A DNA stretch of 61,868 bases, counting the filler, from Dugesia japonica (lineage: Eukaryota): NCBI GenBank assembly GCA_001938525.1. It is 6 parts of 6 records of this genome, joined end to end, with 100 filler letters (N's around TTAATTAATTAA, not from the genome) between each part and the next. Parts side by side here need not be neighbours in the genome. Positions count along the whole stretch, not along the records: positions 1 to 11,256 come from MQRL01497790.1; 5 more parts are not named here. One strand, written 5' to 3'. The notes under the pieces were generated by a model. That model saw only the letters and a list, made by a program, of their open reading frames with translations, made no database searches and had not been told where the DNA came from. This document shows positions 1-27,400 of this stretch, one piece after another (the first letter of the stretch is position 1; each line of letters begins with the position of its first letter). The translations under genes were made by a program, and so were the position numbers.

Positions 1-244
1 ATCATTGTGACGAAAGTTTCAACTTGGGTTTTCCACACCCTCTCCTGATTCTGGGTGGCGGCCATCTCCGCTTTAAAAGTCAGACATTTCCGCTTATAGC
101 GTTTTACCTTAGCTTCGGCCGTGGTGGTTTCCGCTTTCCATCGCCTCTTCGCTAGTTTATAAAGATNCCAGGTAATCTCCTTGTCATCACTATCTTCTCG
201 TAATTTCTTAGTTGGGACCTGGAACCTATTCAAAGACGAATGCA
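1..244 (-). CDS. Cassette ORF3 copy A (partial), coiled-coil protein
   Basis: After acceptor TTTCAG|TG reads xHSSLNRFQVPTKKLREDSDDKEITWxLYKLAKRRWKAE..., homologous to ORF3 of copies B and C; open to the window edge. Confidence 0.7.
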
Positions 245-480
245 CTGAAATATAAACAGGTTTAATATGCTACACTTTACTCAATGTTACTAATACTAGA
301 AAAGTGGGGTAGTCTTGACTACCACCATTACTAAATGAAATGGATCAACCCAACCTCTTTACAAAATAAAACAAAAATATACTAAAATTGAATTATTATC
401 ACCAGTAAACTGCCTCACAAGAAAAGTTGAAAATAACCACAAACGAAACAATTATTTATTTCTAACAAATAACCAAAAGT

Positions 481-837
481 TTAAGAGGGGTTATTACTAG
501 TGTCGGTATTGGGGACGGTATTTTCAACGTCAGCTACCCCATTCGGCTCCCGGACTCCCCAGAGAAGATTAGTGATGAACGTTTGTATCGCAGGAGCTGG
601 GGGAGTAGTGGTAGGTTGATAGGAAAAGGAGGTTGCTAAAGTGCGATCCGGGCCTGTCCACGCCTGGTATCGCTGGCGTTCTCCGAAATCGTTAATGCGG
701 CCAACGATTGATTCGACCGGCGGTAAATTTGCCCGGTTTACTAAGATTCCGGTATCCTGATGATGCGGGTTATGATATCGTCGTAGAGTTAGCCGACGCG
801 TTCGCCTATCGACGAAACGTATCCATATAGAGTCCAT
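481..837 (-). CDS. Cassette ORF2 copy A, 118 aa unknown protein
   Basis: Intact ORF, clearly homologous to 18546-18893 (DRRTRR, NLPPVE, WTGPDRTL, NLLWG.REP); acceptor TTTAG 3 nt before ATG. Confidence 0.75.
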   Translation of the reverse strand: MDSIWIRFVDRRTRRLTLRRYHNPHHQDTGILVNRANLPPVESIVGRINDFGERQRYQAWTGPDRTLATSFSYQPTTTPPAPAIQTFITNLLWGVREPNGVADVENTVPNTDTSNNPS

Positions 838-986
838 TCGCTAAATAAGGGGAATATAGTTTAATTTATGATTGATAACTTTCTTTGAGTTAGTTAAATA
901 TTAATGGAAAGGAACAACAGATATAAACAGCTCAGTCAAAGATCTATTCAGAACAATTAACAATAATGGACAGATTTTATCCCTGC

Positions 987-1181
987 TTAGTAAAATGCAT
1001 TTTCTGCGTCTAGATCTACCAGACCCACTAATGGGAACATTTCCGTGAAACAGCACAAATCCGTTTCATCTGGATGTTCAATGCGTCCTTTTTTGAGGAT
1101 ATGGGCGAGTAATTGTCTTAAACGAGTGGTTTGCCGCCGTCTTTTTATCCATTGGAGAGTACGCCTCAACTCTGCTGGCAT
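987..1181 (-). CDS. Cassette ORF1 copy A, 64 aa basic-helix protein
   Basis: Motif QLLAH...G.(I/V)EHPDETDL.C..E conserved in all four copies. Confidence 0.75.
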   Translation of the reverse strand: MPAELRRTLQWIKRRRQTTRLRQLLAHILKKGRIEHPDETDLCCFTEMFPLVGLVDLDAENAFY

Positions 1182-2586
1182 GACGGAATGAAAGAAAAAT
1201 CGAATTTTAATCGTAATTTAAGGATTAGATCCTCGAGGAGAATTTGTTATATTGCAAATAGATTGCACCGCCTCTAATTCACGTTATTCATTTTGTGGAT
1301 ATTTCAAAGTGAGGTCCTACTGTTACTGTTAAGCTTATCCCGGTCTTACAGCGTTCGGGCAGAAAATTATTAAGTTTAGATTCAACGTTTAATGACGGGC
1401 GCTAAAATTGTTGAGATGGTTGGTCGAGATGGTCATAATTCGTTATATCATTATTATCAATAAAATTTATAAAAAACACCAATTTTATTAATTATAATAT
1501 TAATTAATCCTTGCTAAATTTATGGTTATTAAAACCCGCGCGTGCTATTGTTGCCCAGGAATGTCTTTTCTCTAGGTGATTGAGTCAGTGTATCGTGAGT
1601 AGGTATGCGACACACCCTCTTTTTATGTGGTTATCGTAAGAAATCACCAATTGAGTTTATGTGCTGACTCAAGCGATTGTAATATGTTGTAAAATGTTTT
1701 CTCTGCTTTCATAATGATCGGGTAGCAGCAACGTGGATATTTCTAAAGGCCATCTCATACATTTGTGGAATTTATTTATTAAATAATTATCTGCTATCTG
1801 CGAACCTAAAATTTGTTGTTAGGGGAGCAAAAGATTTTTCTGCGGAATGTTTCCATGGAATTTTCATTCAAAGCTAGCATCGGAATCAGACAGAGTTAAA
1901 GTCAACAACGGCAATTATATTTAGCAACTATTCGATTGCACACATCGTTAGTAGGAATATTGGTAGTTGATTGAGGTGTTTACTGATTCTATTTACACAT
2001 TGTAAATAACACGGATTTACCCTTTATTTCAATGTCAATTCTGGTGATTTCATCGTAATAAATTTTGTTATTCATTTTATTAATTTTTAAAAAAAAATAA
2101 ATCAAGTATAACCGACATTTCTATTCAAATTTTATACATTATATATTTATTAGTTATAAAGAGTAAAAAAGAAAATCTACTAGGTTTAGCATAATAATTT
2201 ATTAACATAACTATTATTCATATACGATGTTAATTAAAATAACATATTACTTGGTGTTGTAGGATTAAAGACTTTCTTCAACGGGTTTTTGGTGGACAAG
2301 ATAGATTAAGTTGACTAGTTCTGATTATTGGTCCGGTATTTCGTTCTTTTCGTCTTCTTGAAACAAGTAATATTAACCGCAACACAAATGAAATGTTAAT
2401 TTACTCTCGATTTCCAATATAGACAAAGTAGTTGCTGCGCGATAACCACGTAATACAACGAATTTCTTGGTACTTCCTTGACTTGTATAAGTTATAATCA
2501 CAAAATTTCAGAGTTACTTTTTGAGTATATAAGTAGGCACAACTTGTGATGATTAGACTGAATAATTCTGCTAAAATCAGGGGTCC

Positions 2587-2790
2587 TTTTATAGGATTTC
2601 TGAGACATCCTGACTTGTTATTGATTTGTTGATTATTTTTGGATCAACGTTTTTCTGTTGTCATTGGTTCTCATGCCATTTTTCTACGATTTTCTATGAA
2701 TTTTGGTGCCATGATTGGCAGCTATTTTTATCCGGACACATGGCATTTGTGTCTTTGTTATATTTTTATTTTTAAATATCTGATTGGTCT
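2587..2790 (-). promoter_or_regulatory. Putative promoter of cassette copy A (TATAAAA plus upstream CCAAT boxes)
   Basis: TATAAAA on minus strand at 2587-2593 in context AAATCAGGGG..TTTATA shared with copy B (7054-7059); several ATTGG boxes upstream, also in copies B and D. Confidence 0.5.
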
Positions 2791-3834
2791 AATCTTGAGG
2801 ACCCTGCAGCAACCCTTTGGAAGGTGGTATGTTTTTCGTTTTTGTAATTTCAGTTGCCCCTTGATGTTCTCTCTTCATTTTTTCTTGTCCAGATTCTTTC
2901 CGACTTCCCTGATCGAAGTTATCTGGATAAAACAGATTTTTAACTAATTTTGCTTCTTTTTTTATTTTAAAATTAATTAATTTTCTTTTGTTAATTAATT
3001 ATTTTCCATAACGTTTTTCTATGTTGTTTATTATTAAATTAATAATTGTTCTTAATTTCCAAAAGTAAGTTGCTTTTATTTTACTCGGTTCATCATATTC
3101 ACCTTTGGTTTTATTTCGTTTCCTTCTCCTGCTGCTTTCATTGCTTCATTTTCCATTATTATTGACTATAATGGTCCTGCCATTCTTGTTTGCTGATTTA
3201 TTTTTCAACCTTAATCTTGTTTAGCGGGTGTTTCACCCCAACAAATATACTGAATAGACTACTTCAAATTAAAGAAGTAATCCTGCTTATTTTCTTTTAA
3301 AATATTTATTGTGCACTGTTAGCAGCTGCTATGTTTTCTCCAGTTTGCATCTAAATATTTATCAATAAATTATATGTTATGAGTAAATCCAGTGAAAATT
3401 AATTCTACCACAAAATAGTAATATTAAAACATTTAATTGTCTTACTTATTTTCTTTTTTTATTTGAAATTTCTTCCATTATTAATACATTTAACTTTTAT
3501 GAAACTCTTTAAGAAATTTATAAAACTTTTCATAAAATTTTTATGTTGGATAATTAAACATCCTAACATGTTTTGGGATTCTACTTAAGTTATGAGCAGA
3601 AAAATTTTAAAAAATAGAAAAAAAACAGCCCTCAGGGGTACCCCTTGAAGAATTTACGCAAGTTCCCTTATTAGGTTCTCGGTGCGAAGCGGTTGACTTC
3701 CATCACATATTTGGAGTTCACACTTGCACACCTTTAGTTCGGGTTCAACATTTCCCATTTTAATAAAGGCTCTTGAAATATTAACCATAAATTAGCAAGA
3801 AAATTTCTTTTACACAAATATGCTTATGTTACAT

Positions 3835-4123
3835 TTAATTTAAAGCTTCAGGGTCAAGCCACTGGGTCGGCTCGTCATTTAAAAAGTCGATTGCGGCCTC
3901 ATCATCATTGTGGTTTCATCTTATCCACGTTTCCGTGATCTGTTTAACTTGCTTAGCTATTTCATCCTGTTTTTTATTGATCAGCTCTAACTTCTTGATT
4001 AACACTGTGTTAGATGTTGACACAGAGAGCGTTTGCAACGTTTAGAGTAATGTCTCTCGACTAGTAGTTTTTGTATTAGCTCATGGCAACATTCGAGGGA
4101 GTTTGGCAATCTGATTCGTGGCA
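3835..4123 (-). pseudogene. Cassette ORF4 copy B (premature stop)
   Basis: TTTTAG|TG CCA CGA ATC...; C-terminus AAIDFLNDEPTQWLDPEALN matches copies C and D. Confidence 0.65.
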
Positions 4124-4226
4124 CTAAAAATAAACATGATAAAAACGAGAACCCGTTACGCAAACAATATGTAGTTAATAACAAGAGTTTGATAATACAA
4201 TTTATTAAAGCAACCAAAAGGAGCAG

Positions 4227-4582
4227 TTAATTTTTTGTCTGAGTCGACTTATCAATCATCAGTAGCTCCAGAGAAATACGCTTACGCAGTTCTAATAATT
4301 AAGTCACCAGTTTATTCTCACAGTCATGGAGGGACCGGATAACGTTAGCAAAAGACTCAAGTTGGCGCTTCCAGATGCTCTCTTACGAATGGAATGCTTC
4401 TGCTTCTACTCTATGTTCTCGGCAACGAGCCTCGTAACGCCCTACTTTGGTCTGGGCGAAAACTACTTCGGCTTCCCATCGGCGTTTTGACAGTTTATAG
4501 ACATCCCAAAACATAGCGATGTTTTCGCTATCCTCTCGCACCTTTTTGGTGAGAGCAACGTAACTGTCTCGTGAATTGTTCA
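4227..4582 (-). pseudogene. Cassette ORF3 copy B (two in-frame stops)
   Basis: WDVYKLSKRRWEAEV...IRSLHDCENKLV...LMIDKSTQTKN, collinear with copy C. Confidence 0.7.
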
Positions 4583-4758
4583 CTAAAAGAAGCTACTAAT
4601 TAATGTTTGCTAGAATTCGCAACGCTAACAGTTTAATATTATTATTCCAAAACCCAACTTAAATGTTTAACGAAATACCAAACACCAAAACGTTGAAGTC
4701 AGATGATAAAAAAATTAACGTAAATACTATTTATTGTCAAGCAAATATTGATGCACGA

Positions 4759-5138
4759 TCAATTCTCGTAACCTCTAATGCTCCACATATAGTCGTTAAT
4801 AGTTTCTCTTATTTCCGAAGGAGTAGGAGAATGAGCGGAAGGATTATGGATTGAAGACGGCTCAACCTGCCAATCTCGTTTAGTATGCTGAAAACCATTC
4901 TCGCCCGTTGTAGTTGTCGTGGTAGCGAAATACGTCACGCGATTACAGTTAGGACCTGTACAATCATAAAAATCCTGCCGCTCAGTTGCGTCCCAATGTA
5001 CTTTGTTATTAGCGTCTTCAACAGATAAATTTCGATCGTTCTGCAAACACACTGGCATTTCTATTAAAAGATTAGTGTACCGTTTAAAAACCATCTGGTT
5101 AGTACGGCGATCCAAGATTAACTCCCATTTAAATTTCA
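4759..5138 (-). CDS. Cassette ORF2 copy B (divergent)
   Basis: Same position as other ORF2; shares W..I.DRRT, TGP..R and 'INDYMWSIR' similar to 'INNLLWGIR'; begins at acceptor TTCAG|TG. Confidence 0.6.
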
Positions 5139-5260
5139 CTGAATACAAGAGAAAAATTATTTTAGATAGAGGAAGTCAGTTAGAATTTCAAACAAAAATA
5201 TTAATTCAATAATTTTTTAATACAGATAATAATTTATTTATAAGCAATAACAAAGCATAG

Positions 5261-5446
5261 TTATAAGTATTGATCTAAATGGACTATAAGTTTTGACGGG
5301 AATATTTCTAAAAAACACTGCAGGTCCGTCTCATCCGGATGTTCAACTTTCCCTAACGACAATATATGGGCCAATAATTGCTTTCGACGTGCCTTCTGTC
5401 TTTCTTTGCGGATCTGTCGGACAGTTTCGTACAAAATTCTGGACAT
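5261..5446 (-). CDS. Cassette ORF1 copy B
   Basis: QLLAHILSLGKVEHPDETDLQCFLEIFP; acceptor TTTAG 4 nt before ATG. Confidence 0.7.
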   Translation of the reverse strand: MSRILYETVRQIRKERQKARRKQLLAHILSLGKVEHPDETDLQCFLEIFPSKLIVHLDQYL

Positions 5447-7860
5447 TTTCCTAAAGTAAGTTTATGAAAAATAAACATAATTGAAATATCATTTGATTTA
5501 TTTTCGGCCTATTTAAAACAAGAGTAAACGAAAATCGATATACCTCAGAATATTAATGAAACTCAAAAACACGAATACCCATCATTATGCAATAATAATA
5601 TTCCTAATGATAACCTTAATAAATTAATATTAATAATGATTAGGCCAGTAATAATATTTTTATCATTAATATTAACAATAATAGTCCTGATAATTGCATA
5701 AATAATAATCGTAAATAAATTATAATAATAATAATAGCAGAACTCGGAAAATTGTTAAAATTTAAAACTGATTAAAACAGAAAGTACTGTTTATTTGACT
5801 ATTAGTGATTGGCGCTATAATTGTAATACTGTCGAAGCGAATATTAGTCAAAACATCGAGACCAAAAGGTCGGTGTAGTGACATCATCGTTATTCAGCCA
5901 AGCGGTGACAAATTTGAGTCCCAGAACTGGATCAACCCAGGAGGTTAAACTATCTAGCAAAACTGATTATCAATGAAGAAAATACTGAATTTGTAAAAGT
6001 TTATAATTGTGCAAGTAAGGTGTTAGTCACCATAGAACTAAAAACCCAAAAAAAGTATTAATTTTAATAATCAATAATTAATTAGCAGTCAGTGTTCGTC
6101 TTAAAATCAACACTAAGGAAATGGTGGTGGAGTATAAAGATTTTACACACTCACTAAATTTTCTACAAATCAGAGTTATTACTATCAGCTACATCGGGAC
6201 ATTAATAACTCGATTAGTTGTAAGACAAACTGTTAATCTGATAATGGATGAGTAATAGGTGTGCGGTCTGCAGTGCAACATGTATACATAAAAAATCGTC
6301 TCCTACAGTTAGTTTGTAGGTTCTTATCAGTCATCGAAAATAGTGTGTAAATTGCTCATTTCCATCATGCCTCATGGTCTGGAATGCATAGCTCGTTTTC
6401 AATGCCATTTCCTAATGCCGATTGAAAATTAATTTTTTCTCATGGATTACAATATATTCAAAGGGAAAGGGTTACGAAGTTGACAAGAATTGAACGAAAA
6501 TTATTAGATCGGAGATAGTCACATTTCACTCTTACGGTAAATTTTTGTTAATTATCAAATAAAGTGTTATACTGCCATTTAGTGAAAGAGAGTACTATGA
6601 TAGTGAAGGAAGCAAATTCTAAACGTCTATCAACAAGGACTTATTAACATTCCACACGTATTCTCAATCGAAAACCTGGACAACTGGAAATTAATGAAGT
6701 AGTGGAATTTCTTAATGATTATGCTAATTTAATTGGATCTGGTTTACCAAACATGTGAATTGTTTCTATGAAATAAAATTTGTGTTCTTATACTACTCAT
6801 TATCATTTTTTACTGGCATGCAACAGATAATCATAGATAAGGTTTGAAAAAGTTTTTATTAAATATTAACACATTATATGGTTAAAATAACAACAAATAA
6901 CATTACTTTTCAAAATTAGGACGGTAAAAGTTGATCCAATTAATTCGTTTATCCAGAATTGCGCACTTCCAAAGAGATTTTCCACGTAATAACCGAGTTG
7001 TAGTATTAACAAATGTAGATTTTTTGGGGGTAAATCAACTGAAATCAGGGGGGTTTATACTTCCTCGTCGACACACCGAATTTTCTACCATTGACCGGTT
7101 ATTTTTATTTTTGGTTAACCGTTTCTGATTGGCAATAACTCCAAAATTTTCAGACTTTCTACGATTTTCTATCATTTTGTTGGTGCCTATTTTTAGAGCA
7201 CTTGCTGATTTTCAGGGCTTTGTTTTCCGTTTATCTTATGGCTTCTCATATGCCTGATCTTTAGACCCTTCTGATGATGGCAATGTTTTCTGTCACCAAA
7301 TTCAATTCCTCCACGTTATTATACCTCTAAACTTTCTTTCCTGGACTTCCTCATATTTTCCTGAGAGAAGATAATTTCCTTTAACTGATTTTCACACAAT
7401 TAAATTCCTTTTTTCAACAAAATTAATTAATTTCTTCCATTATTTTAATTATAATTTTAATAATAATTTTCTTGTGTTTTGATTATAAATTATAATTCTT
7501 GTAATTGGATTTGATTAATATTAATATTTTATTATTTCTGTTACTTCTTTATTCGTTCTGTATTTTCTTCTGGTCATCTGTTGATTATTTATTACAATTT
7601 ATTATCAAGATGACAATTATTATTGATTAATCTCCACGTTTCTTATTGCTTCTTTTTACTACTCAATGTTTGGGTCCCTAGTCATATTTCCTTCTTTGAT
7701 CAGGTGTTTCACCCCAACACATGCACTATTTTTATTAACTTCAAACTTTTACATCTGTTAAAGATACTTCTTTCCTTTTCCCACGAGAAATGCCGATTTT
7801 ATTGTAGCCTCACAGTAAATATGCAATAAAATTTAGCAACTTTTTTTCAACCACATTTGT

Positions 7861-8045
7861 TGGGGTTCCACCTGAGTCGGGTGGTAATAAAAATGAGGCT
7901 GGGGAAAAAACAGCCCTCAAGGGAACCCGTTCAAGAATTAAACCTACCGCCCCTAGGGTAGGTATTCAGTTTATGGTGGTTGACCTCTCCCTTAATGGGA
8001 GGTGCACACCCATAAACCTTTGTATTCGGGTTCAATAGTTTTCCC
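7861..8045. ncRNA. Conserved multi-stem structured terminal element (also ~3574-3756 and ~17375-17557)
   Basis: Stems GGGTTCC/GGAACCC, GGCTG/CAGCC, ACCTACC/GGTAGGT, GTTTATGG/CCATAAAC; stem sequences differ between copies but pairing is retained. Confidence 0.55.
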
Positions 8046-8102
8046 TTAACTTAAACAAAATTTTAAATCAAATAATTCTGGGAACATTTATTAATACAAC
8101 AT

Positions 8103-8500
8103 TTATAGCTCATTTAATACGCTAGGGTCTAGCCATTAATCTGGGTCGTCTATTGTAAAATTGAAGGCGGCGACATCGTCGTCATTGTTCCAATGAATCC
8201 AGGCTGGATTCCGAATCTGTCTGGAGAGGTCAGCTATGTACTGCTTTAAAAAGTCTATTTTTCGTAACAGTAACTGCCTGGTATCGGCCTCTAGGGCTTT
8301 GGTTTGGATTGCAAAGTCGTTTTGCTTACGGACTACCAAATCCAATTTTTTTATGAGTTGATTCCTTTGGTCAAGGTGCTTAAGGAAAGCTTGGTCTGCT
8401 TTGCGTTTTAAGTGTCGCTCTAATAACAGGTGGCGTAAGATGCGGTGGCGTAAGACGCGGTGGCACCTCCTCAAACTAGTAGGAAACGCGATTCGAGACA
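8103..8500 (-). CDS. Cassette ORF4 copy C, basic N-terminus, coiled coil, acidic tail (late premature stop at 8136)
   Basis: ORF track 8136-8501; reading through the TAA gives WLDPSVLNEL as in copy D (QWLDPGVPDEL); starts at TTTAG|TG. Confidence 0.7.
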
Positions 8501-8619
8501 CTAAAGAAAAAGTATAATTAAATTAATGAGTACCTAAGCTACGACGCGGGAAAACAAATAACAGAGAAATTTCATACAATTAAATATTTTATCGTTTCAA
8601 TCAATAATGCAACATCAAG

Positions 8620-8979
8620 CTATGAGAGGCTCGTCTGAGTACTTTTGTCGATCATTAGCGGTTCGAGGGGGATTTTCTCCCGGAGAATCAAAATGTCGTT
8701 AACCAGTTTATTTTCTCGGTCATGGCTGGACCGGATAATCTCTGAAAAAGATTCCACTTGTTTTTTCCAAGTGCGCTCCTGTAAATGGGAGGCCTCCGCT
8801 TCCTTTCTAAAAAGAACACATTTTTTCTTATAACGGAGGACTTTACTATTCGCAGTGGCCACTTCTGCCTCCCAACGTCGTTTGGCGAGTCGGTAGAGGT
8901 CCCACATCATTTCGCGGGCCTCGCTAGTGTCTCGGATTTTCTTGGTTGGAGCTGGGGGGGCGATTTAACGATGAATGCA
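8620..8979 (-). CDS. Cassette ORF3 copy C, coiled coil with C-terminal DKSTQT
   Basis: ORF track 8620-8910; 5' part from acceptor TTTAG|TG at 8979 has a +1 shift in a C7 run. Confidence 0.7.
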
Positions 8980-9182
8980 CTAAACGAAAATATCATAAGA
9001 ATTATTTCTCTTCATCGACTTGCTGATTAATCCTCTTATATTTGTTCAACTCTACTCAAAGCATGAAAACACAGAATAACAATATTAAAGGTAATCTTCC
9101 CAAGGGGCTAAAGAGTATATTAACACTACTTAAGACACTTATTTATTCAAAGAAACACAAATTTTATGATTATGAATAACAT

Positions 9183-9528
9183 CAAGAGTCGGGAGTGGTA
9201 GTATCAGGGGAACTGTATTTTCCACATCCGCCACCCCGGACGGTTCCCTAACACCCCAGAGCATATTAGCTATAAAGGCTTGAACTACTGGTGGAGGAGC
9301 TGGAGGTTGGTACCGGAATGGAGTGGCGTGGCTACACTCAGGACCATTTCACTGGCGATAGTTTAGTCGCTCTCCAAAGCCCTGAATACGAGCAACAGCT
9401 GCTTCGACGGGAGGTAGATTTGATCGGTCTACCAGGATCCCGGCATCTCGAGTGTAGGGATTGTGGTGCCGTCGGAAAATTATTCGACGGGTTCGCCTAT
9501 CCATGACTCGCTCCCATATTGATTCCAT
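9183..9528 (-). pseudogene. Cassette ORF2 copy C (internal frameshift)
   Basis: MESIWERVMDRRTRR..., downstream LWGVREPSGVADVEN is in another frame. Confidence 0.65.
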
Positions 9529-9667
9529 TTCTAAGAATGACGAAATATTAGTAAACTCAATTAACACATTATACAATTACAATAAACACTTAAATGTATG
9601 ATTAACACGCTACGCGGAATTTTATTCAAAAGATCATTTTAACAGATAACTATCACCGAAGTAAATG

Positions 9668-9850
9668 TCATCCCTCATCCCGATCTACGTTCCTTTCCAA
9701 GGGGAATATCTCGGTGAGACAGCACAGGTCTGTCTCGTCTGGGTGTTCAATTGTTCCCTTTGTGAGAAAGTGGGCTAGTAACTGTTTGAACCGGCTAGTC
9801 TGGCGTTGCTTTTTTATCCAACCCAATGCCTGATCTAATTCTGTTGGCAT
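9668..9850 (-). CDS. Cassette ORF1 copy C
   Basis: QLLAHFLTKGTIEHPDETDLCCLTEIFP. Confidence 0.7.
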   Translation of the reverse strand: MPTELDQALGWIKKQRQTSRFKQLLAHFLTKGTIEHPDETDLCCLTEIFPLERNVDRDEG

Positions 9851-11300
9851 GAGCTAAAGAAGAAAATGGTTAACTGTTGTTTTTTCCTTTTGACTTAATT
9901 CCCCGGATCAACTTATTGTAGCAACTTGTTATTTGATGGGGGTCATATCATGGAAGGGTAGAAATTAAAGGAGGATCGTTACCTAGGATCATCGCAACCT
10001 GGTTATGAGGGTAATGTTAATTCTAGCATAAAATGATAGTTAATATCACCGCAAAAGTACGTAACAAAATAATTTTCTTTTCATAATAATATTCGTGATA
10101 AAGATACCTGTTATGGCCCATGGAAGCACGACCATATCGTTGCATCTGATAGTATCACCAATCCTTATTCGGAATGGTAACCAGCCCAATTTTTAATTCA
10201 ATTCTCCGATTACTCTAACAAGTTGACGTCTATTCCCCCCAAAACGCTATTATTACTATTAATGGCCAAATTCCTGTAACACTGGTTATTATAAACGTTA
10301 TAACATTAATTTTCATCAATAAAAGCAACAATAATGATAATATAAGCACAAAAAGGAAAATTAAGATTATTTTCTAGTTTTTCTAATTTTGAATTTCTGC
10401 CTGTTATAGTTGCCTAGTGATATTGTTTAAACGGGGTATATTGGTCTCACTCGTGTGAGTGTGTGCTTGCCAGTTTAATTTCGTATATGTGTGTATAGGC
10501 AGGTAATCTAACTAAAGTAGATAATATCAACTAGTTACATCACTACTAATGATAGGAATCTCGACTGATCAAACTTAGTGATGTTGGGGGATTTTCGCAT
10601 GTCAAAAAACAAAATTTCTTTATAATGTACATACTCAACGAGAAAATTTTTTTCACTCCTATAGAGTCGGGTCACAAAAATTTGGCTGCCACTAAAGATC
10701 ATGGAGATTTTAATAGATCAGAGCGTATTAAGGTTATTTTTGGAAGTTATTTGATTGCCATCTCTCCATGATTTCGTTGGAATCAACTGCAGTGAGTTGT
10801 AATTTATTAATTTTCTTAAATAAATAGTTGGAAATGGTTTTCTTAATTGATTATTTTATTATTATACTTCAGTCTAGGCGTGAATCGTAAAATTATGGAA
10901 AGAGATTAAACCCAGTTTAAATTCTGGAATCTAGCTGTTAGGGTGTGATTAATCCAGCAACATACATTTTAGAATTACCATATTTACGTATATCATATTA
11001 TTTGTGGATATAAAAAGAAAAGCGATTACTTTCTTAATAATCAATAATTTCAAGGGATTCTTAGTTTGAACGGGATTAATGTCACGATGATTCATGATTT
11101 ATTAGTTATCGTTAAGAAATAATAATGTACGTTTTTATAGCATGAACAAATTTTATTAAGATAAATGATATTCATCGTTAAAAATTATACCACTTTTACA
11201 CAATTAAAATAATAATTTACTTTTTAATATTCCTGTAAAATTTTCTGCAACAGGTTNNNNNNNNNNNNNNNNNNNNNNNNNNNNNNNNNNNNNNNNNNNN

Positions 11301-11312
11301 TTAATTAATTAA
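11301..11312. other. Artificial scaffold linker TTAATTAATTAA in N runs (also 22094, 32009, 41317, 51217)
   Basis: Identical palindromic all-frame-stop 12-mer centred in N gaps five times. Confidence 0.9.
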
Positions 11313-11389
11313 NNNNNNNNNNNNNNNNNNNNNNNNNNNNNNNNNNNNNNNNNNNNTATATATATATAAAGCTGTATAATACGAGAAAT

Positions 11390-13400
11390 ACATGTCACAT
11401 TTAAATTATTATGAAGCTGATATACCAATGAATTTAAAAGATATCCCGAAATTTGAAAAAGAAAATTATAGATTATCAATAAATGTCTTATTTTGGAACC
11501 CGCATTGAGGACGATGATGTGGTCATGACACACTATAATCTTGTCATAATACATCGATCGAAAGCTGTTTACAGCGAGAAGATTAATTTATTACGGTTGA
11601 AGGATAATGATGATTTCCATTACACAGCACTATTGAATTTAAACCATGTAATAAATAGAGATCGAACGAATTGTGTAAGAATACAAACATTACGATGTCT
11701 AAATTGTCTGAATGGATTTCACTTGAAGGACAAATTTGTAAAACAGAAGCTAATTTGTGGTTGAATTCAAACGGGCACTACACACTGTATTATGCCGACT
11801 GAAACCAANTTAAAATTCCAAGATTTCAACAAGGCAGTTACTCTCCTTTTTGTATTATATGCTGATTTTGAATTAGTTTTATCTCTCAGATGAAAAATAT
11901 TTCCAGAAATATCTACATGTTTCGGCTGGTCGGTTGTAGGTAAATAATTTTACTAATAAAGTGAAATACAGCAAGTACTTTGGAAATGACTGCTATTTTG
12001 AGCTTTTAAAGTCAGTTAAAGAATAAAATAATAATTTACTAATCCCTATTACAAAAAACATGGTAATAAGCAAATTATAATGTCCCCTCACATGATTGTT
12101 TAGACCAGCCCGAAATTGTTATTTATTTAAACATAAGCTCATAAACCCAGTTCGAGATCACAACCATTTTACAGGAAAGTATAAAGTAGCTGCGTGTAAT
12201 TTTTGTAATTTATCAAGAAGAGTTCATATGCAACTACCGGTTGCGTTTTCTAATTTGAGAGTGGATGATGAGTATATTTATATTTATATTTTATTGCTAC
12301 ATACTCGAATATGGACTCAGCAGATTCCAAAATGAAATATTAGTTGTATTTCTATGACTTTTGAAAAAGTCCTATGTTTAATAGTGCACCAAAAAAAATC
12401 ATCTACTATTAAATTTATTGAGAGTTATCAGTTTATTTTACAGTAAAAGAAGTTCAAGACGGTAGGATAACGATATCAAAGGGAATATTTCCTTATAATT
12501 ACGCAACTAGTTTGCAAGTTTTGGTTGAAATAGTTGACATGCCACAAAAGTTGGAGGAAGTAAATGAAGAAGATTAAAAAAAGGTGATCAAGATGTGGAT
12601 GCTGGCAAGTTGTTATATGTTAGTTTATTTGAAGTTGGATCTGCTTTTGTTAGCGGATTTTTTTCAATAGTTAAGAATTAAATCATTAAATTTAGAGTCT
12701 TTCAATTTTTTCGGAATACCATGGATGAGTTTGGCATCATCATTGATGTCATTAGATGAGCAAATTGAACTGTTGAAAGATAATGACATGTACACATGTT
12801 TTAAAGGTGGAATAAGAAGCGGGCTTACATTCATCAATTAACACCATGTGGCATCTAATGACAATACTGATTTATTGTATATAGATAATCACAATCTATA
12901 TGGTTGGTCATTAAGTCAGAAATTTCTCTATGCAGATTGTGAGTTGGTCTATAATTTATTGGAAACAACGCTGGAAGAATGTAAGACAGGTGACCTCAAC
13001 TTGTTACCAAATTAATACTCATTGGTGGTAGACATGGTTATTTTGGAGGAAATTTACGATTGCCTAAACGATTTCCCAGTAGCAGTGAAACATCATAGTT
13101 CATCAGGATCAAAAATTGATAAATTGTTGTTAACACATTACTCAAAAAATAACTATATTATTTATCGGAGGCTGTTGTAAATGTATATTCAGTTGGGTGA
13201 ACAGATGATAAAAATGCACAGAGGAGTTCAGTTTAGAGAAGGAAATATGTTTAAAAAGTATATAGATATTTATACATAATGGATGTCAAAAGCAAAATCG
13301 TAATTGGAGAAAAATTATTATATATTATTCATTAATAGCTTAAAAGGAAAATCTGTGGAAAATTTGAAGAAAAGAATTAATGTGCGCTTGTGCATTATAA
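11390..13400 (+). pseudogene. Polinton/Maverick protein-primed DNA polymerase B relic
   Basis: YADFE, PVRDHNHFTGKYKVAACNFCNL, GGIRSGLTF, LLYIDNHNLYGW, NSLxGKSVEN; many stops and frameshifts; homologous to 28400-30350. Confidence 0.85.
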
Positions 13401-13709: not shown

Positions 13710-16500
13710 TTAACTGGCGACCACGGCAACAACGAAAATTAATTTTAGAAGCCTTGTCTAAGAAGAATTTGGAACTTATTAATTTTAATATTAAAAAATA
13801 TGATTGTAATGATTCTTCATAAGCCTCAGCATGGCTGAAAGAAATCAACGAATAGCTCATTGTGAATGATTTACGCTTGATGGGAATTATCGATGAAGAT
13901 ATTTACGCAATACGGAGAAAGAGTTATTCAAACGTGTTAAAAGGAGACTGAAGTAGTAATGAGAGACGGCCTCAAAACCAGCCGTCAATTAATTTTAAAA
14001 CCAATAATAATGTAAGATATGAAAAACCAAGAACAGAAATTTCAACGTATCAGAGAAAGTTCAACGAAAGGATGTCACAACCGGTAATTACAGAGAACAG
14101 AACGTATGGTTTAAGTAGGAAACTGGCAGTTTCAAGATGTCTTTTTAACAGATATAGAGGATTACCTGAACTACAAGAAGAACGATTACGGGAAGGACAA
14201 TGTTATTGTAGCAGAGAACATGAACACATGCGTTATCAATGTCTAATAAAATATAATTGTTTGATATACGGGAAAGCTGGACACAATTTCCGGCAATACT
14301 ATCTTGTGAAAGTTTGATCTAATAAGGGAAATATTAAAATTCTATGCATCCAGAGGAACAAGAGGTACAAATTGACAAAGATGAAATCTTTGAAATGCAT
14401 GATATTATCAAAGAAAAAAACCAGAACAACTCCGTTGCATACATTTTGTCAGTGGAGTTAACTTAAGAAGAGATAACTTGAATCGAAATAATCAAGACAG
14501 AAGATAGATGTATGAAAAAGAAGACGGAAGAGCGTGAAGAAGAGTAGACATGAATGGAGTAAAATTGGAAATGTTGTGGGATTCGGGAACATTGATTACA
14601 ATTATGAGCGAAGAGTACTGGTTGAAGGTAGGAAAACCAATCTTGTTATGTTGCAATGTCATGTTAAATGGGGTATTTTTGAGCAGTGAAGAGAGGCCGT
14701 TATGATTTGTTGAAGTGAGCGTTAAATGGAATAATACAGTGAGAGTTATTAAAATCATAATTTTTAAAAAGACGATCAAAGTTTATGGATGGCATAGATG
14801 CAGTGAAAATTTTCGGAATAAAACTGACAGAAGTTAATAACATTGAAACAGAATGTTTTGGAAGAAACCACTCAAACGATGATAGAAAGAATTACGCATT
14901 AAATGTCTTCTAAAAAACAAATAACAAAGATCTAAATTATCTAATTTTGAAGTTTGTTGAAATATTCATGGCGATTAATTTTGATATAAAACATACAAAA
15001 CAAATAATATACGAAAAATAAGTATTTGGAGATCCAATTGTTCAACATCCCCGGAGACAACCGATGCACTTGAAAAAGAATATTGACGAAATGATACTGC
15101 GTTTAATAAGTATTGGGATAATTAGCATATGTAAAAGTTGGAAATGGAAAAAAAGATGGGTTGGTAAGAATGTGTGTCGATTATTGACAACTGAATATGA
15201 TCACTGAAAAGTTTCATTTCCGATGCCAGACATCCAGTTATTATTGGCTTGCTTAGCAGGTGCAAAAATACTTTGTTCAATTGATCTAGGACAAGCTTTC
15301 TATCAAGTAGAACTATCAGAAAGCTTGAGAGATGTTGCGGTGTTTAGTACAAAAGAGGGTCAATTTAGGCTCAATTGGATTCTATTTGGGTTAGCAACGG
15401 CAACGTTTCAAAAGTTGATGCATGATTTGATGGCAGGAGTGATTTTTAAAGGTCTCATCGTATATCTAGATGATATATTAGAGTTTGAAAGAACGGTCGA
15501 AGATCATAATGATATTTTGAAAGAATTTTTCAACAAAATAAGAGAATCAGGATTGAGAATAAATCCAGAAAAATGTAACTTTTACCAAAAACAACTGGAC
15601 CTTTTGGGACACACAATAAGTACATGAGTAAAAACAAACGAAACTAAGATTTAGGAAATAAAAAATGCCGAAGAACCAAAATGTTCATCTAAACTCAGAT
15701 CTTTTTGCTTAACGAATTACTACAGGCGTTTTATCAAGGATTACGCTAGAATTGCAAGACCTTTGAAGCTATTTTAAAATGGGAAAAAAGTTTGATGTGG
15801 ACAGAAGCATGCAGAAAACGTTTTGAATGACAAGTTATGTAATGCACCAATCTTAGATTACCCAAGAGAAAATAGAATGTTTATCCTAGATACTGATGTA
15901 AGTTTCGGAGCTATCGGTGCAGTGTTGAGCCAAAGAACAGAAGATAGTGAAGAGGTGGTGATAGCTTATGAATCCAGGAACTTTACTGCTTATGAAAAGG
16001 GATACTGCGTTACAAGAAAAGAATTGCTGGCATTACATGAATATGTGGTACATTTCAAGCAATATCTATATGGAAAGAAATTCTTAGCAAGAAAAGATCA
16101 CAAAGCACTGATATTTATGAATAACAAAAAAACCGATAAGCCCACGATTTCAGACGTGGATAGCAAATCTGGGAGAATATGATTTTGAGTTAAAATATTG
16201 AAAGGGGTTAAAACGCAACAATGCTGATGGATTATCACGAATAAATGAGAGTTTATGCTCACAATACTAAACAGTACATTTGGATTCCATGGAAGAAAAA
16301 TCAAGAGTAAAATATATTAACAACAGAATGAAAACATTATAAAAAAAATTCGGAATGCACAGAAAGATGATTCAATAATACAAAGAATAAATGAAATAAT
16401 TCAAAACGAAGTACGGCTAGTAGAAAAGATCATTCAGGGAAATTATGTGGATCAACTTGATCGCGAATTGAAAATTGATTATGGATTGACGAAATAAAAT
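13710..16500 (+). mobile_element. Decayed Ty3/Gypsy LTR retrotransposon (PBS, gag, PR, RT, RNase H)
   Basis: PBS-like TGGCGACC at ~13715; LWDSGT protease; IDLGQAFYQV and YLDDIL RT (15223-15627); FILDTDVS and KELLAL RNase H (15823-16182). Confidence 0.9.
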
Positions 16501-17957: not shown

Positions 17958-18075
17958 CTGAAAGAAATTAGATTAGTATATGGTAACTTGACACAAGAAT
18001 TTAAGTAAACATTAAGATAAACTCGTAAGACAGATTGAATGACAAATTTATTTACAACGAAAAATTATTGCAAGT

Positions 18076-18368
18076 TAGTTCCGGTGAGTTTAGTTGACCT
18101 TCTCGATCATCAGTGGTTTGAGAGGCATTCTTTCTCGTAGGAACAATATGTCCTCAACCAGTTTATTTTTTCGGTCATGACTAGACCGCATAACCTCCGC
18201 AAATGACTCAACTTGTCTCTTTCAAGTTCGCTCCTGCAAGTGAGAGGCTACGGCCATCTTTTTAAAAGTGATGCACTTTTTCTTATAGCGAGTCACCTTA
18301 CAGTTGGCAGCAGCTTTCTGTGCCTCCCATCGGCGTTTTTCCAGTCGATATAGGTCCCGGTGAATGCA
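18076..18368 (-). pseudogene. Cassette ORF3 copy D (deleted, acceptor mutated)
   Basis: DLYRLEKRRWEAQ...MRSSHDRKNKLVEDILFLRE. Confidence 0.6.
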
Positions 18369-18545
18369 TTAAAAGAATTTTAAAACCAATCAAACATTAC
18401 AAAGTGAACCGCTATCTCTATGACTGATATTGTCATAGTACATTTACAACTTGCGCTTAAAGTTAATTTCAAAATCAAAAGAAAATATGATGAAACTAAT
18501 CTGAAGACAACAAGATTTTTACGACCAAAACAAAAAAATAAACTC

Positions 18546-18893
18546 CTAATGAGTAGTTGCTGAGTCAGTTGCGGGTGTAGAATTCTCTGAATCCTTGCTA
18601 CCTGATGGTTCTCTTATCCCCCAGAGTAAATTATTGATAAGTGCCTGTACGGCAGGTGCTGGAGCTGCTGGTTGATACTGGAAGGTTGTGACAAGTGTCC
18701 GATCAGGCCCTGTCCAATTATGATGGCTACGCCGCTCCCTGAAATCCTGTATTCGAGCTATGATGGCTTCCACTGGGGGCAGATTAGACCTATCGGCCAA
18801 GATCCCCGCGTCATGATTGTTGGGGTTAAGATGTCGTCGGAAAATCACGCGACGAGTCCGTCGGTCTATTATACGTTCCCATATAGATTCCAT
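18546..18893 (-). CDS. Cassette ORF2 copy D, 115 aa
   Basis: Intact, homologous to 481-837. Confidence 0.75.
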   Translation of the reverse strand: MESIWERIIDRRTRRVIFRRHLNPNNHDAGILADRSNLPPVEAIIARIQDFRERRSHHNWTGPDRTLVTTFQYQPAAPAPAVQALINNLLWGIREPSGSKDSENSTPATDSATTH

Positions 18894-19014: not shown

Positions 19015-19197
19015 TCAATCCGCGTCTAAGTCGACTCCTGCCATTAAGGTGAACATTTCTGCAAAGCAACACAGATCCGTTTCGTCTGGATGCTCAATTG
19101 TCCCTTTAGTCAATAGATGAGCTATTAACTGTCTTAACCGGGCAGTTTGACGTTGCTGTTTTATCCATCGAAGGATACGGCGCAATTCCGCTGGCAT
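19015..19197 (-). CDS. Cassette ORF1 copy D
   Basis: QLIAHLLTKGTIEHPDETDLCCFAEMF. Confidence 0.72.
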   Translation of the reverse strand: MPAELRRILRWIKQQRQTARLRQLIAHLLTKGTIEHPDETDLCCFAEMFTLMAGVDLDAD

Positions 19198-21420
19198 AAA
19201 CTAAAGGATTAAACTGTCAATGCTAGTAATTAAATTCAGGGTTGAACCAAAACAAAATTTCTTGTTACCGCACGAGGACATTTACCATAATAACAAGTTT
19301 AATAATCCCGGGATAATGTTGGTGATGATCATAATAATAAAATTAATAATAGTTGTAGTACGTATATTAATAACCAACAGTTCTAATATATAAGAATAAC
19401 AGTCTTAGAACGTATAATAATAGCCACTGGCACCACCAGTAATGACAGAATCCTTTACTAAAATGATTAAGATAACATCCGGCAAGAACTACACTAATGC
19501 AAGCCATATTAATAGTAATTGTAGTAAGGATAGTAGTATTACTGATAACTGTAACCATGATAACAATACTAATAATCATAGTGCCAATAGCAGCAATAAT
19601 AGTAATCACACCATCAATACCAATAACAATTATCACCATCATGTCAGTAACACTAATATCATGAATACCAATAATGATGATGCTAATAACGGCAGTAATA
19701 ATAATATTAATAATACTAATAATAACAATATTAATAATAGTAGTGATAATATTAATATTAATAATAATAACGATAATAGTGACAACAACATTTATGATGT
19801 TAAGGATACTATATTAGTATAATCAATTTTAGATTATCTTTTGCTCAAATTTGTTAAAATTGGGAGTTGCGCTGAATTTNGTATTTTCCCTCGTAACAAT
19901 AAAATAATATGTTTTTTGTAAACTTTAATGATTTGACCGAAGTTCGCAAATTAATTAATTGTGGGAAGTGGTTGCTTAACAGCCAAAAAATTTGTAATGG
20001 CTAGTATTACACATTATAGTTAAAGGATAGTATGTGTGTATGCAAAAAGGCATTATTGTACATCGATCGATTCACCCTGGTTACTATGGTGAAATTAACC
20101 ACGACGGCAACTTAAGTCACTATAATGAGTAACTAGTTGCTTATTTTTATAGGGAATTTGGGGGTAATTACTCACGCTCATAGCTGGATTAACTCCAACT
20201 AACTCGTTTAATTTGTAGATCCTGTGGTGGGCATATAATTCTTAGATAAACCTATTTGACACAAAAAAATTTAAAATAAAACTCATTTCACTGTAAATAA
20301 AAGGTTTTTTTTTTAATTAATAATTAGAGCTAAAATTCCATTCAATTTATTTTAATTTATTATAACATAACAGAACACTTCCTATCAAGTTTTTGATAAG
20401 ATTTCCGCAACGGGGAATAACAGACGAATGAACTATTTTTCCTTCTTTTAATTGATAACGAAAGTCACAACTTTTGCTGTTTTAGGACAATTGAAAATCA
20501 GCAAGGTTTAATGAATAAAATTACTTTGATGCGCGATAACTGATCACGTCGATTTCTGTTTGTTGATATCGTAACAAAATTCTGCTGAGGGTTTTTCTTT
20601 TGTGAATTACCGAATTGTATATTAGTTTTACGAGAGATTTAGTAGTGTTTTTGTGATGATCTTCTGCTTATTTCATGTTTCCTTAATATATGACTTTTCT
20701 TCGCACCCCAACTTTGTTCATATTTGTTGGTTATTTATAACCGGAATTTTCGGCTTCCTATTGGTTCTAGTGCCAATTTACTAAATTTTTTAGAGTTTTA
20801 GAGTTCAATTGGCGGTTATTTTTAAAACTTCATGTAATCGATTGTGCTTTATCTTTTTTTTATTTTCAGGTTCCTTATTGGCCCAATCTTGAAATTCCTG
20901 CAGCAACCCTCTGGATGGTGGTAAGATTTTCTTCTTAACAAATGTTTCTTACTATTTTCTTTTTGGATTTTCTTACCCGAACTCTTTCTGATTTTCCCAA
21001 GCGAAGTTATTATTTAGATTTAATTTCCATTCAAATTTAATTAATAATTCATCCTTAATTAATTCTTCTTTAAATTTGCTTCTCCTTGTATTTAATATTA
21101 TTTAATATTCTATTCTAATTATTGATTCGATGCAGGTTACATTTGTCCATTAAAGATCTTTTTCCCTTCTATTTCGGTAGATGTTCATTTTTAGTTCTAT
21201 TGTCGGTTGCCCTGAGGTTTTATATTACTTCTTCCAACGCTATTTGTTTGCAATGAGTNNNNNNNNNNNNNNNNNNNNNNNNNNNNNNNNNNNNNNNNNN
21301 NNNNNNNNNNNNNNNNNNNNNNNNNNNNNNNNNNNNNNNNNNNNNNNNNNNNNNNNNNNNNNNNNNNNNNNNNNNNNNNNNNNNNNNNNNNNNNNNNNNN
21401 NNNNNNNNNNNNNNNNNNNN

Positions 21421-21476
<56 letters not shown>

Positions 21477-22249
21477 TAAAATACAAAAGTGAAATTAGCA
21501 ACACCAATCATAATAATCAAGATATTATTAATGATAATAATAAGAACATAATAATATTTTATATAATAGGATTAAGTGGCTATACATTATCCTGTGTATT
21601 TAGTTGGGAAAATTTTTAAGGCTTTTTAGTTGGGAAAAATTTTTTATGGGAATTTTTTAAATAATCCGTGCAAACTGTTCATTTTGTTTAAAAAATATGA
21701 AAATTTAAAAATTTTTAAATCAAATTTTTATGGAAATCCGGGAGAACCTTCGAAACTTCGAAAATTTTTGAAAAATTTTTTTATCGAGATTTTTACATGA
21801 ATCGATGGAGAATTCGATGNNGATTATTTTTCACAAATAAAAATTTTTCGAAAAAATTATTTCTCATCTTTACATAAAATAACTATGTTTATTAGATAGA
21901 AAATTCTTTGCTGATTCTAAATATATAAACCTTAAATCACCAAAGTTTATCCGGAATGAAATAAATAAGGTTTTGTGGTGAAAAATCTCAAAACTCAAAG
22001 TTTAGCGCTCAGAGCTCTGTGCACAGAGAACTGCTATCGACTCAAATTTNNNNNNNNNNNNNNNNNNNNNNNNNNNNNNNNNNNNNNNNNNNNTTAATTA
22101 ATTAANNNNNNNNNNNNNNNNNNNNNNNNNNNNNNNNNNNNNNNNNNNNATCATATAAACCTATATAAAATCCATATAATAACCTATATAAAACTATGTA
22201 ACACTTAGTTTTGCTTAGTAATCTACAATTTGTATTGTTCTTGTTGCAT

Positions 22250-22628
22250 TTTTATTGTTGTTGATGATATGTATTAAGAGGCAAATAAAGAAAAAGATTT
22301 CAATAATTTATTCATAAAAATATCGAGACGTCGTAATGTGACTGTTATATTTATTACTCAAAATCTATTTCGTCAAAGAACCCACAATTTATACGTGCAA
22401 AATTTGGTTCTATTAAAACGTCCTAGAGATCAGACTGTTGTTAATTTTCTAGCAAGACAAGCATATTCAAATAATAGACAATTTTTTATTGAATCATTTC
22501 AAGATGCAACAGAAAAACCACATGGATATCTATTTCTTGACTTTACACAACAATGTACAGATGATTATAGAGTAAGAACAGATATATTCAACCCTAATGG
22601 TATCACAGTATATAAACAAAACGGGTAA
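22250..22628 (+). pseudogene. Polinton A32/FtsK-like packaging ATPase, C-terminal part
   Basis: Walker B-like VDDM, SRRRNVTVIFITQNLF, KPHGYLFLDF. Confidence 0.85.
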
Positions 22629-22647
22629 TTTTTCATAATATAACAAA

Positions 22648-23400
22648 ATGACAAAATTAAAGAAATTTTTAGTTGATCAAGTAACTGATGGTCTTATTAC
22701 AATAATTGTAATTTTAAAAATGGACATCCAGATAATTTACAAACGGATTTGGGTAACTAATTTTATAATTCCAAGGTAAGAGAACTTATAAATCATCTAT
22801 CCATAAATCATTATAGTGTATTCTCACAATATAAAGCTGCACAAGTAGAGAGATTTAATCGTACATTTAGAGATGCTTTGAAAAAGTACTTTGTACATTT
22901 TGGTAATAAGACTTGGATAAATGTTTTACTGAAACTTATTCATAGTTATAATCATTCTGGTCATAATGGATTAAATGGGGCAAGACCGGTTTATGTATGT
23001 ACATACAATCTATTTAAGTTATGGCTATCACGTTAACATTCAAAAGCAAATAAAATATCAAAGTATAAAGTTGGTGATCATGTGAGAATCTCGAAAATTT
23101 CAGCTTCACCATTTGTCAAGATTTCAATAGTAATTGGAGTGATGAAGTCTTTCAAATAACAAAACTAAATACTTAACCAAATCCGGTCATGTATGTTATT
23201 AAAGATTATGAAGATAATATTGTGCAAGGAAAATTCTATGACCAACAATTACAAGTCATTTAATCACCAGAGATACAAAAAATAGAAACAATAATCAAAT
23301 CAAAGGGATCAGGAAAGAATAAACAATACTATGTAAAGTGGCATGAATACGAAAAACCAAGTTGGATATTAGCATCACAAATAGTCAATCCGGAAGAAAA
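22648..23400 (+). pseudogene. Polinton retroviral-like integrase with C-terminal chromodomain
   Basis: LQTDLG, KAAQVERFNRT, YKVGDHVRISK, YYVKWHEY...SW. Confidence 0.85.
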
Positions 23401-23406
23401 TGTAGA

Positions 23407-24435
23407 TGAAATCGAGTAATTTCTTTACACTGTTACCGAGTAATTGCTGTTCACTTATTCATCGGAGAATAATGCTAGTAAATTCATTGTTGAGCTTCAA
23501 AATTCAATTTATATGGATGGTAGTTGAGAAGTTGTTTTGTTAGATTTTACCTTTGTATATCAAACATTTCCTTTATATGGCAATTTTAAAAATTAATACA
23601 TGAAATCTAAAAATATAGTAAATGAAATAACTTTTACGCTTAATCACAAACCAAAAGTCGTGACTGTTAAGAAAAATGAGAATGCTTTTATGTCTTACAT
23701 AGTATATTTAACTCTTACTTGTGAATATCTATATGTACTCACATTTGAACATGAGAAAAGCGCACATAAATTTGGATTCCGATATAAATCTAACCTCATG
23801 GGTAAACGATTGCTTTCTATTATGTATACATTATTTAAAGATGATTCTTCATTAGAAAATGTAAAAATTATAATGGCTTATTCTAAAGTAACCTATCATA
23901 CTGTACAGTTAAAAGATGAATTATACATAACAGAAATAGACCAACTAAGTAACAATTTCACAGAAAGCGGATCTGAACTATTTAATACAATTTCTTTCAA
24001 AGCAAAAACAATCTATTTAGATTCTGACTGAAAGATGATATCAAAATTGTTACATTCGATAAAATCTTGTCAAGAACATTGGGCTTAGAAAAAGAATATT
24101 ATTCAATTGCAGAAATGAAGAATAGTGTAATACAAGTGTAATAATAGAAATCCAAAAATCATTAAGTTACATCAGCAAATGTTCATCTATAGTAGTCTTG
24201 TTGAACCTATAATTGTTTTAGATGTTAGTGTACCTTTGTTGAAATCAGTATGAATAGAAAAGCATGAAACTGATGAAACAGTACAAATAATAGTTGATAA
24301 TCCAATGTATTTACCTATTGCAACATCATGTATAAACAGTATAGAAATTAATATACGCGATGATAACGGAAAATTAATCAAGTTTCGAAAAAATTCAAAA
24401 ATCCATTTAACTTCACATTTCAGAAAACTAAATAA
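23407..24435 (+). pseudogene. Polinton minor capsid (penton)-like gene
   Basis: N-terminal LPSN...N.ASKFIVELQNSI; C-terminal FIYSSLVEP..V..PLL, INSIEINIRDDNGKLI..HFRK. Confidence 0.8.
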
Positions 24436-24870
24436 TGAATCCTGATATTTTTTTCAATGTATAGTACTGGTCAAGCAGGTGGAAAATTACTTTACTTTCT
24501 TGGAAAACAGTATGGATCCGGTTGGTTACGAACAATAGTTAGATTTGTTTTGCCGATTCTTAAAAGTATAATTTTTTTTGGTATGAAAAAAGCTCAGGAT
24601 GTACTAGCTTATGACGGAAAAAATACTACCAACATTGAAATCTAATGCAAAAGCTGCGCTTGGAAATGTTATGTCATCGTTACCTAGCCGAGTAACCAGT
24701 ATGATTTCAAACATATTACCACAAAGTATAACTAACAAAATACCATATGAAATAACTAATATGCTATCAAATTAAGTTAAAACACTACAAAATAGTAGAA
24801 AACGTAAGAAATTTCATGGATTACGTATAAAAAAACGAATGAGAGGCCATGGAACAATATTTGAAAAATG
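24435..24870 (+). pseudogene. Polinton core/PZ-like small basic protein
   Basis: GQAGG, KQYGSGWLRTIVRFVLPILK amphipathic segment, basic tail; lies between penton and major capsid genes. Confidence 0.7.
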
Positions 24871-26050: not shown

Positions 26051-26099
26051 ATAATATGTTGTTTAATTGGTACATGCTATGAAGTAAGTGTTATTATAT

Positions 26100-27194: not shown

Positions 27195-27400
27195 GAAAAA
27201 TTGTAATGCTAATGAGATTTTTTATTAAAAATTGCATCACTAATGAGATGTTTTATTTTAAATTACATCCCTGATGAGATTTTATATTAAAACTTGATTC
27301 ACTAATGTGATGTTCTATTAAAAATGGCATCACTGATGAGATTTTCCATTAAAAATTGCATCACTAACATGATTTTGTATTGAAAATTATCACTCTTATG
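27195..27400. repeat. ~33-bp minisatellite, about 6 units
   Basis: Units like AAAAATTGCATCACTAATGAGATTTTTTATT. Confidence 0.75.

Follow-up and report, generated by a model that had tools for sequence, protein, structure and literature searches.

A candidate LC8-binding motif beside a predicted coiled coil in a decayed small gene of a Dugesia japonica mobile element

A 4.1-kb multi-copy element of the planarian Dugesia japonica carries four same-strand small genes, and the third of these, ORF3, encodes a predicted coiled coil followed by a short tail with the hexapeptide DKSTQT, a motif of the LC8-binding type. The best reading, given slightly better than even chances, is that ORF3 would be a mobile-element coiled-coil dimer whose two IDKSTQT tails a single LC8 dimer of the host holds together as a clamp. 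An earlier, sequence-only reading of this DNA had proposed an accessory protein of a transposon, in which a coiled coil stands beside a canonical LC8 motif; the predicted helix and its heptads support that description.

The stretch analysed ("the window") comprises 61,868 nucleotides of assembly GCA_001938525.1, filler included. Its pieces are joined by N44-TTAATTAATTAA-N44 linkers at 11257-11356, 22050-22149, 31965-32064, 41273-41372 and 51173-51272; because these linkers tie together pieces of about 10 kb, neighbourhood across one of them is no evidence. Four copies of the element, c1 to c4, are distinguished below, and a slash in AG/TG and similar strings marks a putative splice point.

The DKSTQT motif

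The motif is found in two copies, on the minus strand in both. In c3 it lies at 8632-8649, as residues 106-111 of a 114-residue open frame, with Ile at -5, Ser at +2 and a stop three residues past the motif; in c2 it lies at 4236-4253, with Ile at -5 and Lys at +2. Both sites and their codons are as the sequence-only reading had given them, as is its count of four synonymous codon changes in six (c3 and c2 respectively: GAC and GAT, AAA and AAG, AGT and TCG, ACG and ACA, with ACT and CAG unchanged). Judged from the sequences, the two are one homologous site, with no independent origin.

A search of the window for [KR]xTQT in six frames gave two matches, both within ORF3 homologues, against a mean of 0.6 and a maximum of 2 in 25 block shuffles of the window; D[KR]xTQT is expected at a mean of 0.04 by the same number of block shuffles. 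When the ORF3 residues were themselves shuffled 50,000 times, [KR]xTQT arose in 0.16% of the shuffles and the exact DKSTQT in none, so the motif is unlikely to have appeared in ORF3 by chance. Between c2 and c3, 64/113 ORF3 residues are identical and synonymous sites are saturated (pS 0.79, pN 0.30); retention of all six given residues at that identity has p=0.033. The motif falls inside the longest identical run of the pair, which is 9 residues long.

One possibility is that the motif is nevertheless incidental or confined to a single lineage, with ORF3 a self-sufficient coiled coil whose tail was kept for another reason or by descent. A 9-residue identical run anywhere in ORF3 is non-significant at the identity of this pair (p=0.21), an 8-residue identical run is present in the helix too, one readable copy (c4) lacks TQT, and an 84-residue heptad helix may do without LC8. 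This reading is considered rather improbable: the exact consensus from -4 to +1 together with a favoured -5 residue is rare by chance, as the 0/50,000 shuffles for DKSTQT indicate, the motif stands where it would be expected, in the tail directly past the dimerisation helix, and the counter-example c4 is heavily decayed.

State of the ORF3 copies

ORF3 is present in all four copies in the window, and is decayed in each. In c3 (8620..8979, minus) there is an open frame at 8964-8623, an acceptor-like AG/TG at 8979 and a frameshift between 8979 and 8964. The c2 gene (4227..4583, minus) has an in-frame AG/TG start and two in-frame stops upstream of the motif; that of c4 (18075..18370, minus) has a 5' deletion, internal stops and a tail without TQT; and that of c1 (1..245, minus), also with an in-frame AG/TG start, consists of the 5' part only, truncated by the start of the window before the tail is reached. 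The T-Q-T anchor at -1, 0 and +1 is intact in c3 and c2 and missing in c4, the nearest relative of c3 (pN 0.17), where the place of the motif reads EKVN-stop-T, differing at -1 and at 0, and no TQT occurs in the ORF3 tail in any frame. Conservation of the motif in intact copies had been put forward as a test of the earlier proposal; no copy is intact, and since c4 is without TQT and c1 ends before the tail, the motif is kept in two of the three readable copies.

The extent first given for the gene was 8620..8910; 8910 is probably an internal Met, with the conserved family start at the AG/TG at 8979. The internal Met is found in c2 and c3 and is absent from c1; alternatively, ORF3 could start there.

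ORF1-3 were under purifying selection. For ORF3, pS is 0.72-0.89 and pN 0.17-0.37 over six copy pairs; amino acids are likewise conserved, and synonymous sites saturated, over six pairs of ORF1 and three of ORF2, c2 being excluded from the latter owing to a 25-residue insertion. It is close to certain that ORF3 is a real former gene, and the cassette copies are, on their sequences, genes of long-separated subfamilies.

Predicted structure and orphan status

AlphaFold2, run on the four-copy alignment, predicts one helix at residues 14-97 (84 residues, pLDDT about 98), followed by a tail with pLDDT 49-60 that carries the motif about 8 residues past the helix end. The best heptad register has 18/25 hydrophobic residues, against 5-12 in the other six, and the N-terminal half of the helix is basic, with 11 K/R against 3 D/E in residues 22-54. 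That ORF3 forms a coiled coil is very probable on this model; dimerisation is inferred from the heptad pattern, the AlphaFold2 model being of a single chain.

Searches with ORF3 left it an orphan: a word search of 5.8 billion proteins yielded one candidate and no match, an HMM built from the four copies found no match among 1.84 billion representatives, and there were none among viral contigs or PDB sequences. Matches in the ESM Atlas were weak, with low recognition, and to unnamed clusters alone; those in Pfam were coiled-coil matches only, below threshold. For ORF2, 0/1857 candidates were homologues, no Pfam family rose above threshold and the structure model was unusable (pLDDT 43.7); the impression of a WW domain at its N-terminus is unsupported by Pfam. 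Relatives of ORF1 and ORF4 were sought in Pfam alone. For no gene of the cassette was a functional handle found other than DKSTQT.

Comparison with known LC8 clients

The natural LC8 consensus is [D/S]-K-x-[T/V/I]-Q-[T/V]-[D/E], and Val or Ile at -5 raises affinity: the peptide Ac-DKSTQTD binds LC8 at 5.6 uM, or at 0.07 uM with Val at -5, and zipper-dimerised peptides of the DKSTQT type bind at <0.01 uM, in the low nM range (PMC3078936). The ORF3 sequence I-D-K-S-T-Q-T satisfies the published rules from -5 to +1, with an apolar residue at -5, Asp at -4 and the large Lys at -3, and has neither an internal proline nor an aromatic residue at -2 (PMC6607443, PMC3078936). At +2, where P, D or E is preferred, though not required, ORF3 has Ser (c3) or Lys (c2), neither of them hydrophobic (PMC6607443). 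The motif also sits in a predicted disordered segment, beside the predicted dimerisation helix. Many TQT peptides fail to bind LC8 (PMC6607443); because the ORF3 motif matches a peptide measured to bind (PMC3078936), it is likely that the ORF3 tail would bind LC8 in vitro.

The sequence-only reading had placed the hexapeptide in Bim and in rabies virus P, and it is present in both (PMC6607443, Table 1; PMC11750543). In Bim (BCL2L11) and cellular coiled-coil clients the same core stands in a flexible segment, and the layout of coiled coil plus motif is typical of LC8 clients, as in ORF3; those clients are host proteins (PMC6607443, PMC3078936). ORF3 lacks the preferred P/D/E at +2 but has the favoured apolar residue at -5. 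Rabies P and other viral LC8 clients share the DKSTQT core and have a dimerisation domain shortly N-terminal of the motif, and rabies P resembles ORF3, as predicted here, in being a selfish-element protein that uses host LC8 (PMC12017986, PMC11750543). ORF3 repeats the rabies P arrangement on a smaller scale, with the motif about 8 residues after the helix, against about 15 residues from dimerisation domain to motif in rabies P (PMC12017986). The two differ in what follows: LC8 aligns downstream domains in rabies P (PMC12017986), whereas the ORF3 motif is at the C-terminus, with no domain behind it. No sequence homology was found between them, and ORF3, of about 115 aa, belongs to a genomic mobile element.

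Possible roles of LC8 binding

Dimerisation, transport and a decoy function had all been offered as roles, and of these dimerisation fits best. As a rule, an LC8 complex contains a client in two copies (PMC12017986), and for this reason a dimer clamp is favoured over cargo transport. In the simplest model, LC8 would bind ORF3 2:2 at the C-terminal end and thereby stabilise a parallel dimer. The working surface, for nucleic acid or for a host protein, would then be the N-terminal half of the helix, which is basic, and would serve expression or persistence of the element. The chance that LC8 binding is kept in vivo as such a clamp is put a little above even.

In a transport role, ORF3 would use LC8 to attach element RNA or a particle to dynein. 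The basic region of ORF3 could bind nucleic acid, and a coiled-coil motif of foamy virus Gag has been described as a docking site for the dynein complex (PMC7828637). LC8 structures, however, argue against a cargo role (PMC12017986), and in rabies P loss of LC8 binding affects transcription and leaves nervous-system entry unaffected (PMC11750543); transport is thought very unlikely.

As a decoy, ORF3 would titrate LC8, and a host defence that depends on LC8 would be weakened, for example piRNA silencing or the control of apoptosis of the Bim type. LC8 takes part in the Drosophila SFiNX silencing complex, which counts for this idea, and is an abundant hub, which counts against it. Also against it is the scarcity of RNA from the element family, with 13.6 million records (X13) giving 305 reads on 10 kb. 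A dimer with DKSTQT could bind LC8 at low nM (PMC3078936), planarian LTR elements are repressed by PIWI (PMC8532177), and Burro elements carry apoptosis-related domains (PMC6431247); even so, no evidence for a decoy was found, and little credence is given to it. The dimer clamp remains the preferred role.

The carrier element

Both ends of the element are seen in c2, at 3571..7719 (4149 bp), between CATG flanks at 3567-3570 and 7720-7723. This 4-bp target duplication is present in 1/1 copies with both ends in the window, and the left end of that copy is decayed in its first bases, aligning without gaps to c3 at 15/20 positions. The left end of c3, TGTTGGGGT..., is at 7858..7877 (plus), with the same end at 17372 for c4, and its inverted form closes the right ends at 3243 (c1) and 7719 (c2). 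The ends are thus of TG..CA type, with a short inverted repeat that is perfect over 9 bp and imperfect over about 20 bp. A further conserved block lies about 1.5 kb upstream of ORF1 (2624..2947, also 7148-7261 and 20722-21010).

All four copies in the window share one orientation, and positions 1-7900 hold three highly diverged copies head to tail, with spacers of 327 and 138 bp; the head-to-tail arrangement may stem from a hot spot of insertion or from a pile that resembles a piRNA cluster. The family is large, since the contigs of one RNA run place 713 records on c3.

It is reasonably probable that the element is a giant solo LTR, a confidence held to that level because no primer-binding site, polypurine tract or gag-pol was found beside the five element ends inspected. 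Planarians are known to have LTR elements of giant size, with accessory ORFs (PMC6431247). Among these, the gypsy-like Burro and GYPSM1 come from the same host group and have long terminal repeats, accessory ORFs and high copy number, with decayed fragments reported in Dugesia japonica; they differ in having gag-pol and, in the excerpted account, no row of small LTR genes, and are likened here by description only (PMC6431247).

TG..CA-type ends and a 4-bp duplication describe Ginger too (PMC2836005), and another possibility is that the carrier is a non-autonomous DNA element, with no LTR, mobilised by an integrase of retroviral type (Ginger-like or Polinton-assisted). There is no LTR partner or internal region in the window, and Polinton-like remains lie nearby. 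Their core, however, is on a separate assembly piece, beyond a linker; no transposase or gypsy-like integrase ORF was recognised in 3571-7719; and only 9 bp of the terminal repeat are perfect, where Ginger has repeats of 40-270 bp (PMC2836005). The ends suit a solo LTR better than Ginger, and a DNA element is regarded as possible but doubtful.

Two further assignments were rejected. The neighbouring Polinton was not taken to include the cassette, given that c2 has two ends and a target duplication of its own and that the core-like genes at 22278-30350 are across a linker. Nor was c4 assigned to the gypsy remnant at 13950-16200 as its 3' LTR, since the two are separated by an N gap and a microsatellite and there is no purine tract.

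Cassette genes and their expression signals

Upstream of ORF3 in c3, ORF1 (9668..9850, minus) encodes 60 aa with a conserved EHPDETDL block and has homologues at 987-1181, 5258-5446 and 19015-19197, and ORF2 (9208..9528, minus) has one in-frame stop and homologues at 481-837, 4759-5139 and 18546-18893. Downstream, ORF4 (8103..8501, minus) has an AG/TG start and 121 codons without Met (8501-8139); its homologues begin at 4124 and 17958.

A YAG lies within 0-4 nt of 13/15 gene starts. Where genes have their own ATG its offset is variable, at 2-4 nt, and genes without ATG show an in-frame AG/TG in 7/7 cases (7/15 starts overall). T-rich-AG/TG starts are seen at 245, 4124, 4583, 5139, 8501, 8979 and 17958 (minus), where other copies have ATG. 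At the other end of the genes, AATAAA stands at +10 to +44 in 9/12 gene ends examined, against a background of 2.9 per kb; none was found in the 160 nt after c2 ORF4. From these signals, most cassette genes have their own putative splice acceptor and poly(A) signal. The AG/TG starts suggest a start codon built by splicing, with a leader ending in A joined at this point: the ORF3 mRNA would carry a leader spliced onto the acceptor preceding the gene, and the leader probably gives the A of the start codon.

A start of this kind has a precedent in Drosophila gypsy, whose env start AT/G comes from splicing; gypsy and springer env resemble the AG/TG-start genes of the cassette, as read here, in being LTR-element genes with no genomic ATG and a start at the splice junction (PMC2585583; bioRxiv 10.1101/2023.08.03.551782). 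There, one gene is concerned, the split is AT/G and it has been mapped on RNA (PMC2585583; bioRxiv 10.1101/2023.08.03.551782), whereas in the planarian cassette the split would be A/TG and would recur in a number of small genes that have separate poly(A) signals, as inferred from DNA alone. Flatworm operons resolved by spliced leader (SL) are also similar, with same-strand genes <300 bp apart and an acceptor placed after a poly(A) signal, but the leaders reported for flatworms end in AUG (PMC12582326, PMC9851317). At the AG/TG sites of the cassette this AUG would fall out of frame, with 0-25 codons open in its phase. It was therefore rejected as the start of ORF3 or ORF4, and plain SL trans-splicing gives no start for these two genes.

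Poly(A) RNA contains reads from diverged relatives that align to parts of ORF3, for example at 4306-4340 and 8702-8742, and their aligned parts end short of the motif. All but one of 1,038 RNA reads on 1-10150 fit only partially, and most are <95% alike; the reads are therefore ascribed to relatives of the window copies. None of these 1,038 reads contained a leader or splice joint, none of the RNA reads examined (6-26% of each raw run) showed expression of the window copies themselves, and no RNA source was listed for 7800-10000. Subterminal motifs at 3620-3656 and 7858-7877 are common to many diverged relatives in poly(A) RNA, where one run reaches a depth of about 100, and are candidate cis-elements of the element end.

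Other features of the window

Decayed Polinton-like remains at 22278-30350 and 11380-13080 give weak Pfam matches to DNA_pol_B_2 (E 0.0096) and rve_3 (E 0.024) and include two polB fragments that are 70-75% alike; other fragments in these two regions are presumably ATPase-like and capsid-like. Short tandem repeat arrays at 27175-27440 and 31205-31545 adjoin the Polinton-like region. Decayed gypsy-type remains at 13950-16200 and 40256-41272, 81% alike, match RT and RNase H at E 1e-21 to 1e-26. Host sequence is represented by a Wnt exon at 47088-47318 (minus), whose identity is 100% with a wnt11 protein of Dugesia japonica and 83% with wntP-2 of Schmidtea, and by a large gene at 52000-61400 (minus). 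One exon of this gene runs to about 1,400 codons; the gene has no Pfam match and gives the impression, and only that, of being lipoprotein-like.

Significance

Use of LC8 by viruses is well known, and the motif alone would be a further example of a known trick. What is unusual is the setting: an orphan protein in a row of selected small genes, within a probable giant LTR, in an animal that is a model for regeneration. A search of the literature found no report of a transposon accessory protein as an LC8 client; the primary description of Burro may cover LTR ORFs.

A more far-reaching possibility, thought unlikely, is that giant planarian LTRs carry an operon of accessory genes, with an A-ending leader spliced to several acceptors, in which ORF3 would be an LC8-clamped basic zipper regulating the element or blunting its silencing; the regulatory proteins of complex retroviruses would be the model for ORF3 in such an operon. 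If the LC8 reading is true, ORF3 would be a transposon-encoded LC8 client, and its element a parasite of the genome that has co-opted a dimerisation hub of its host; this would raise the question of the function of such LTR genes in planarian cells, in which elements of this kind are repressed by PIWI (PMC8532177).
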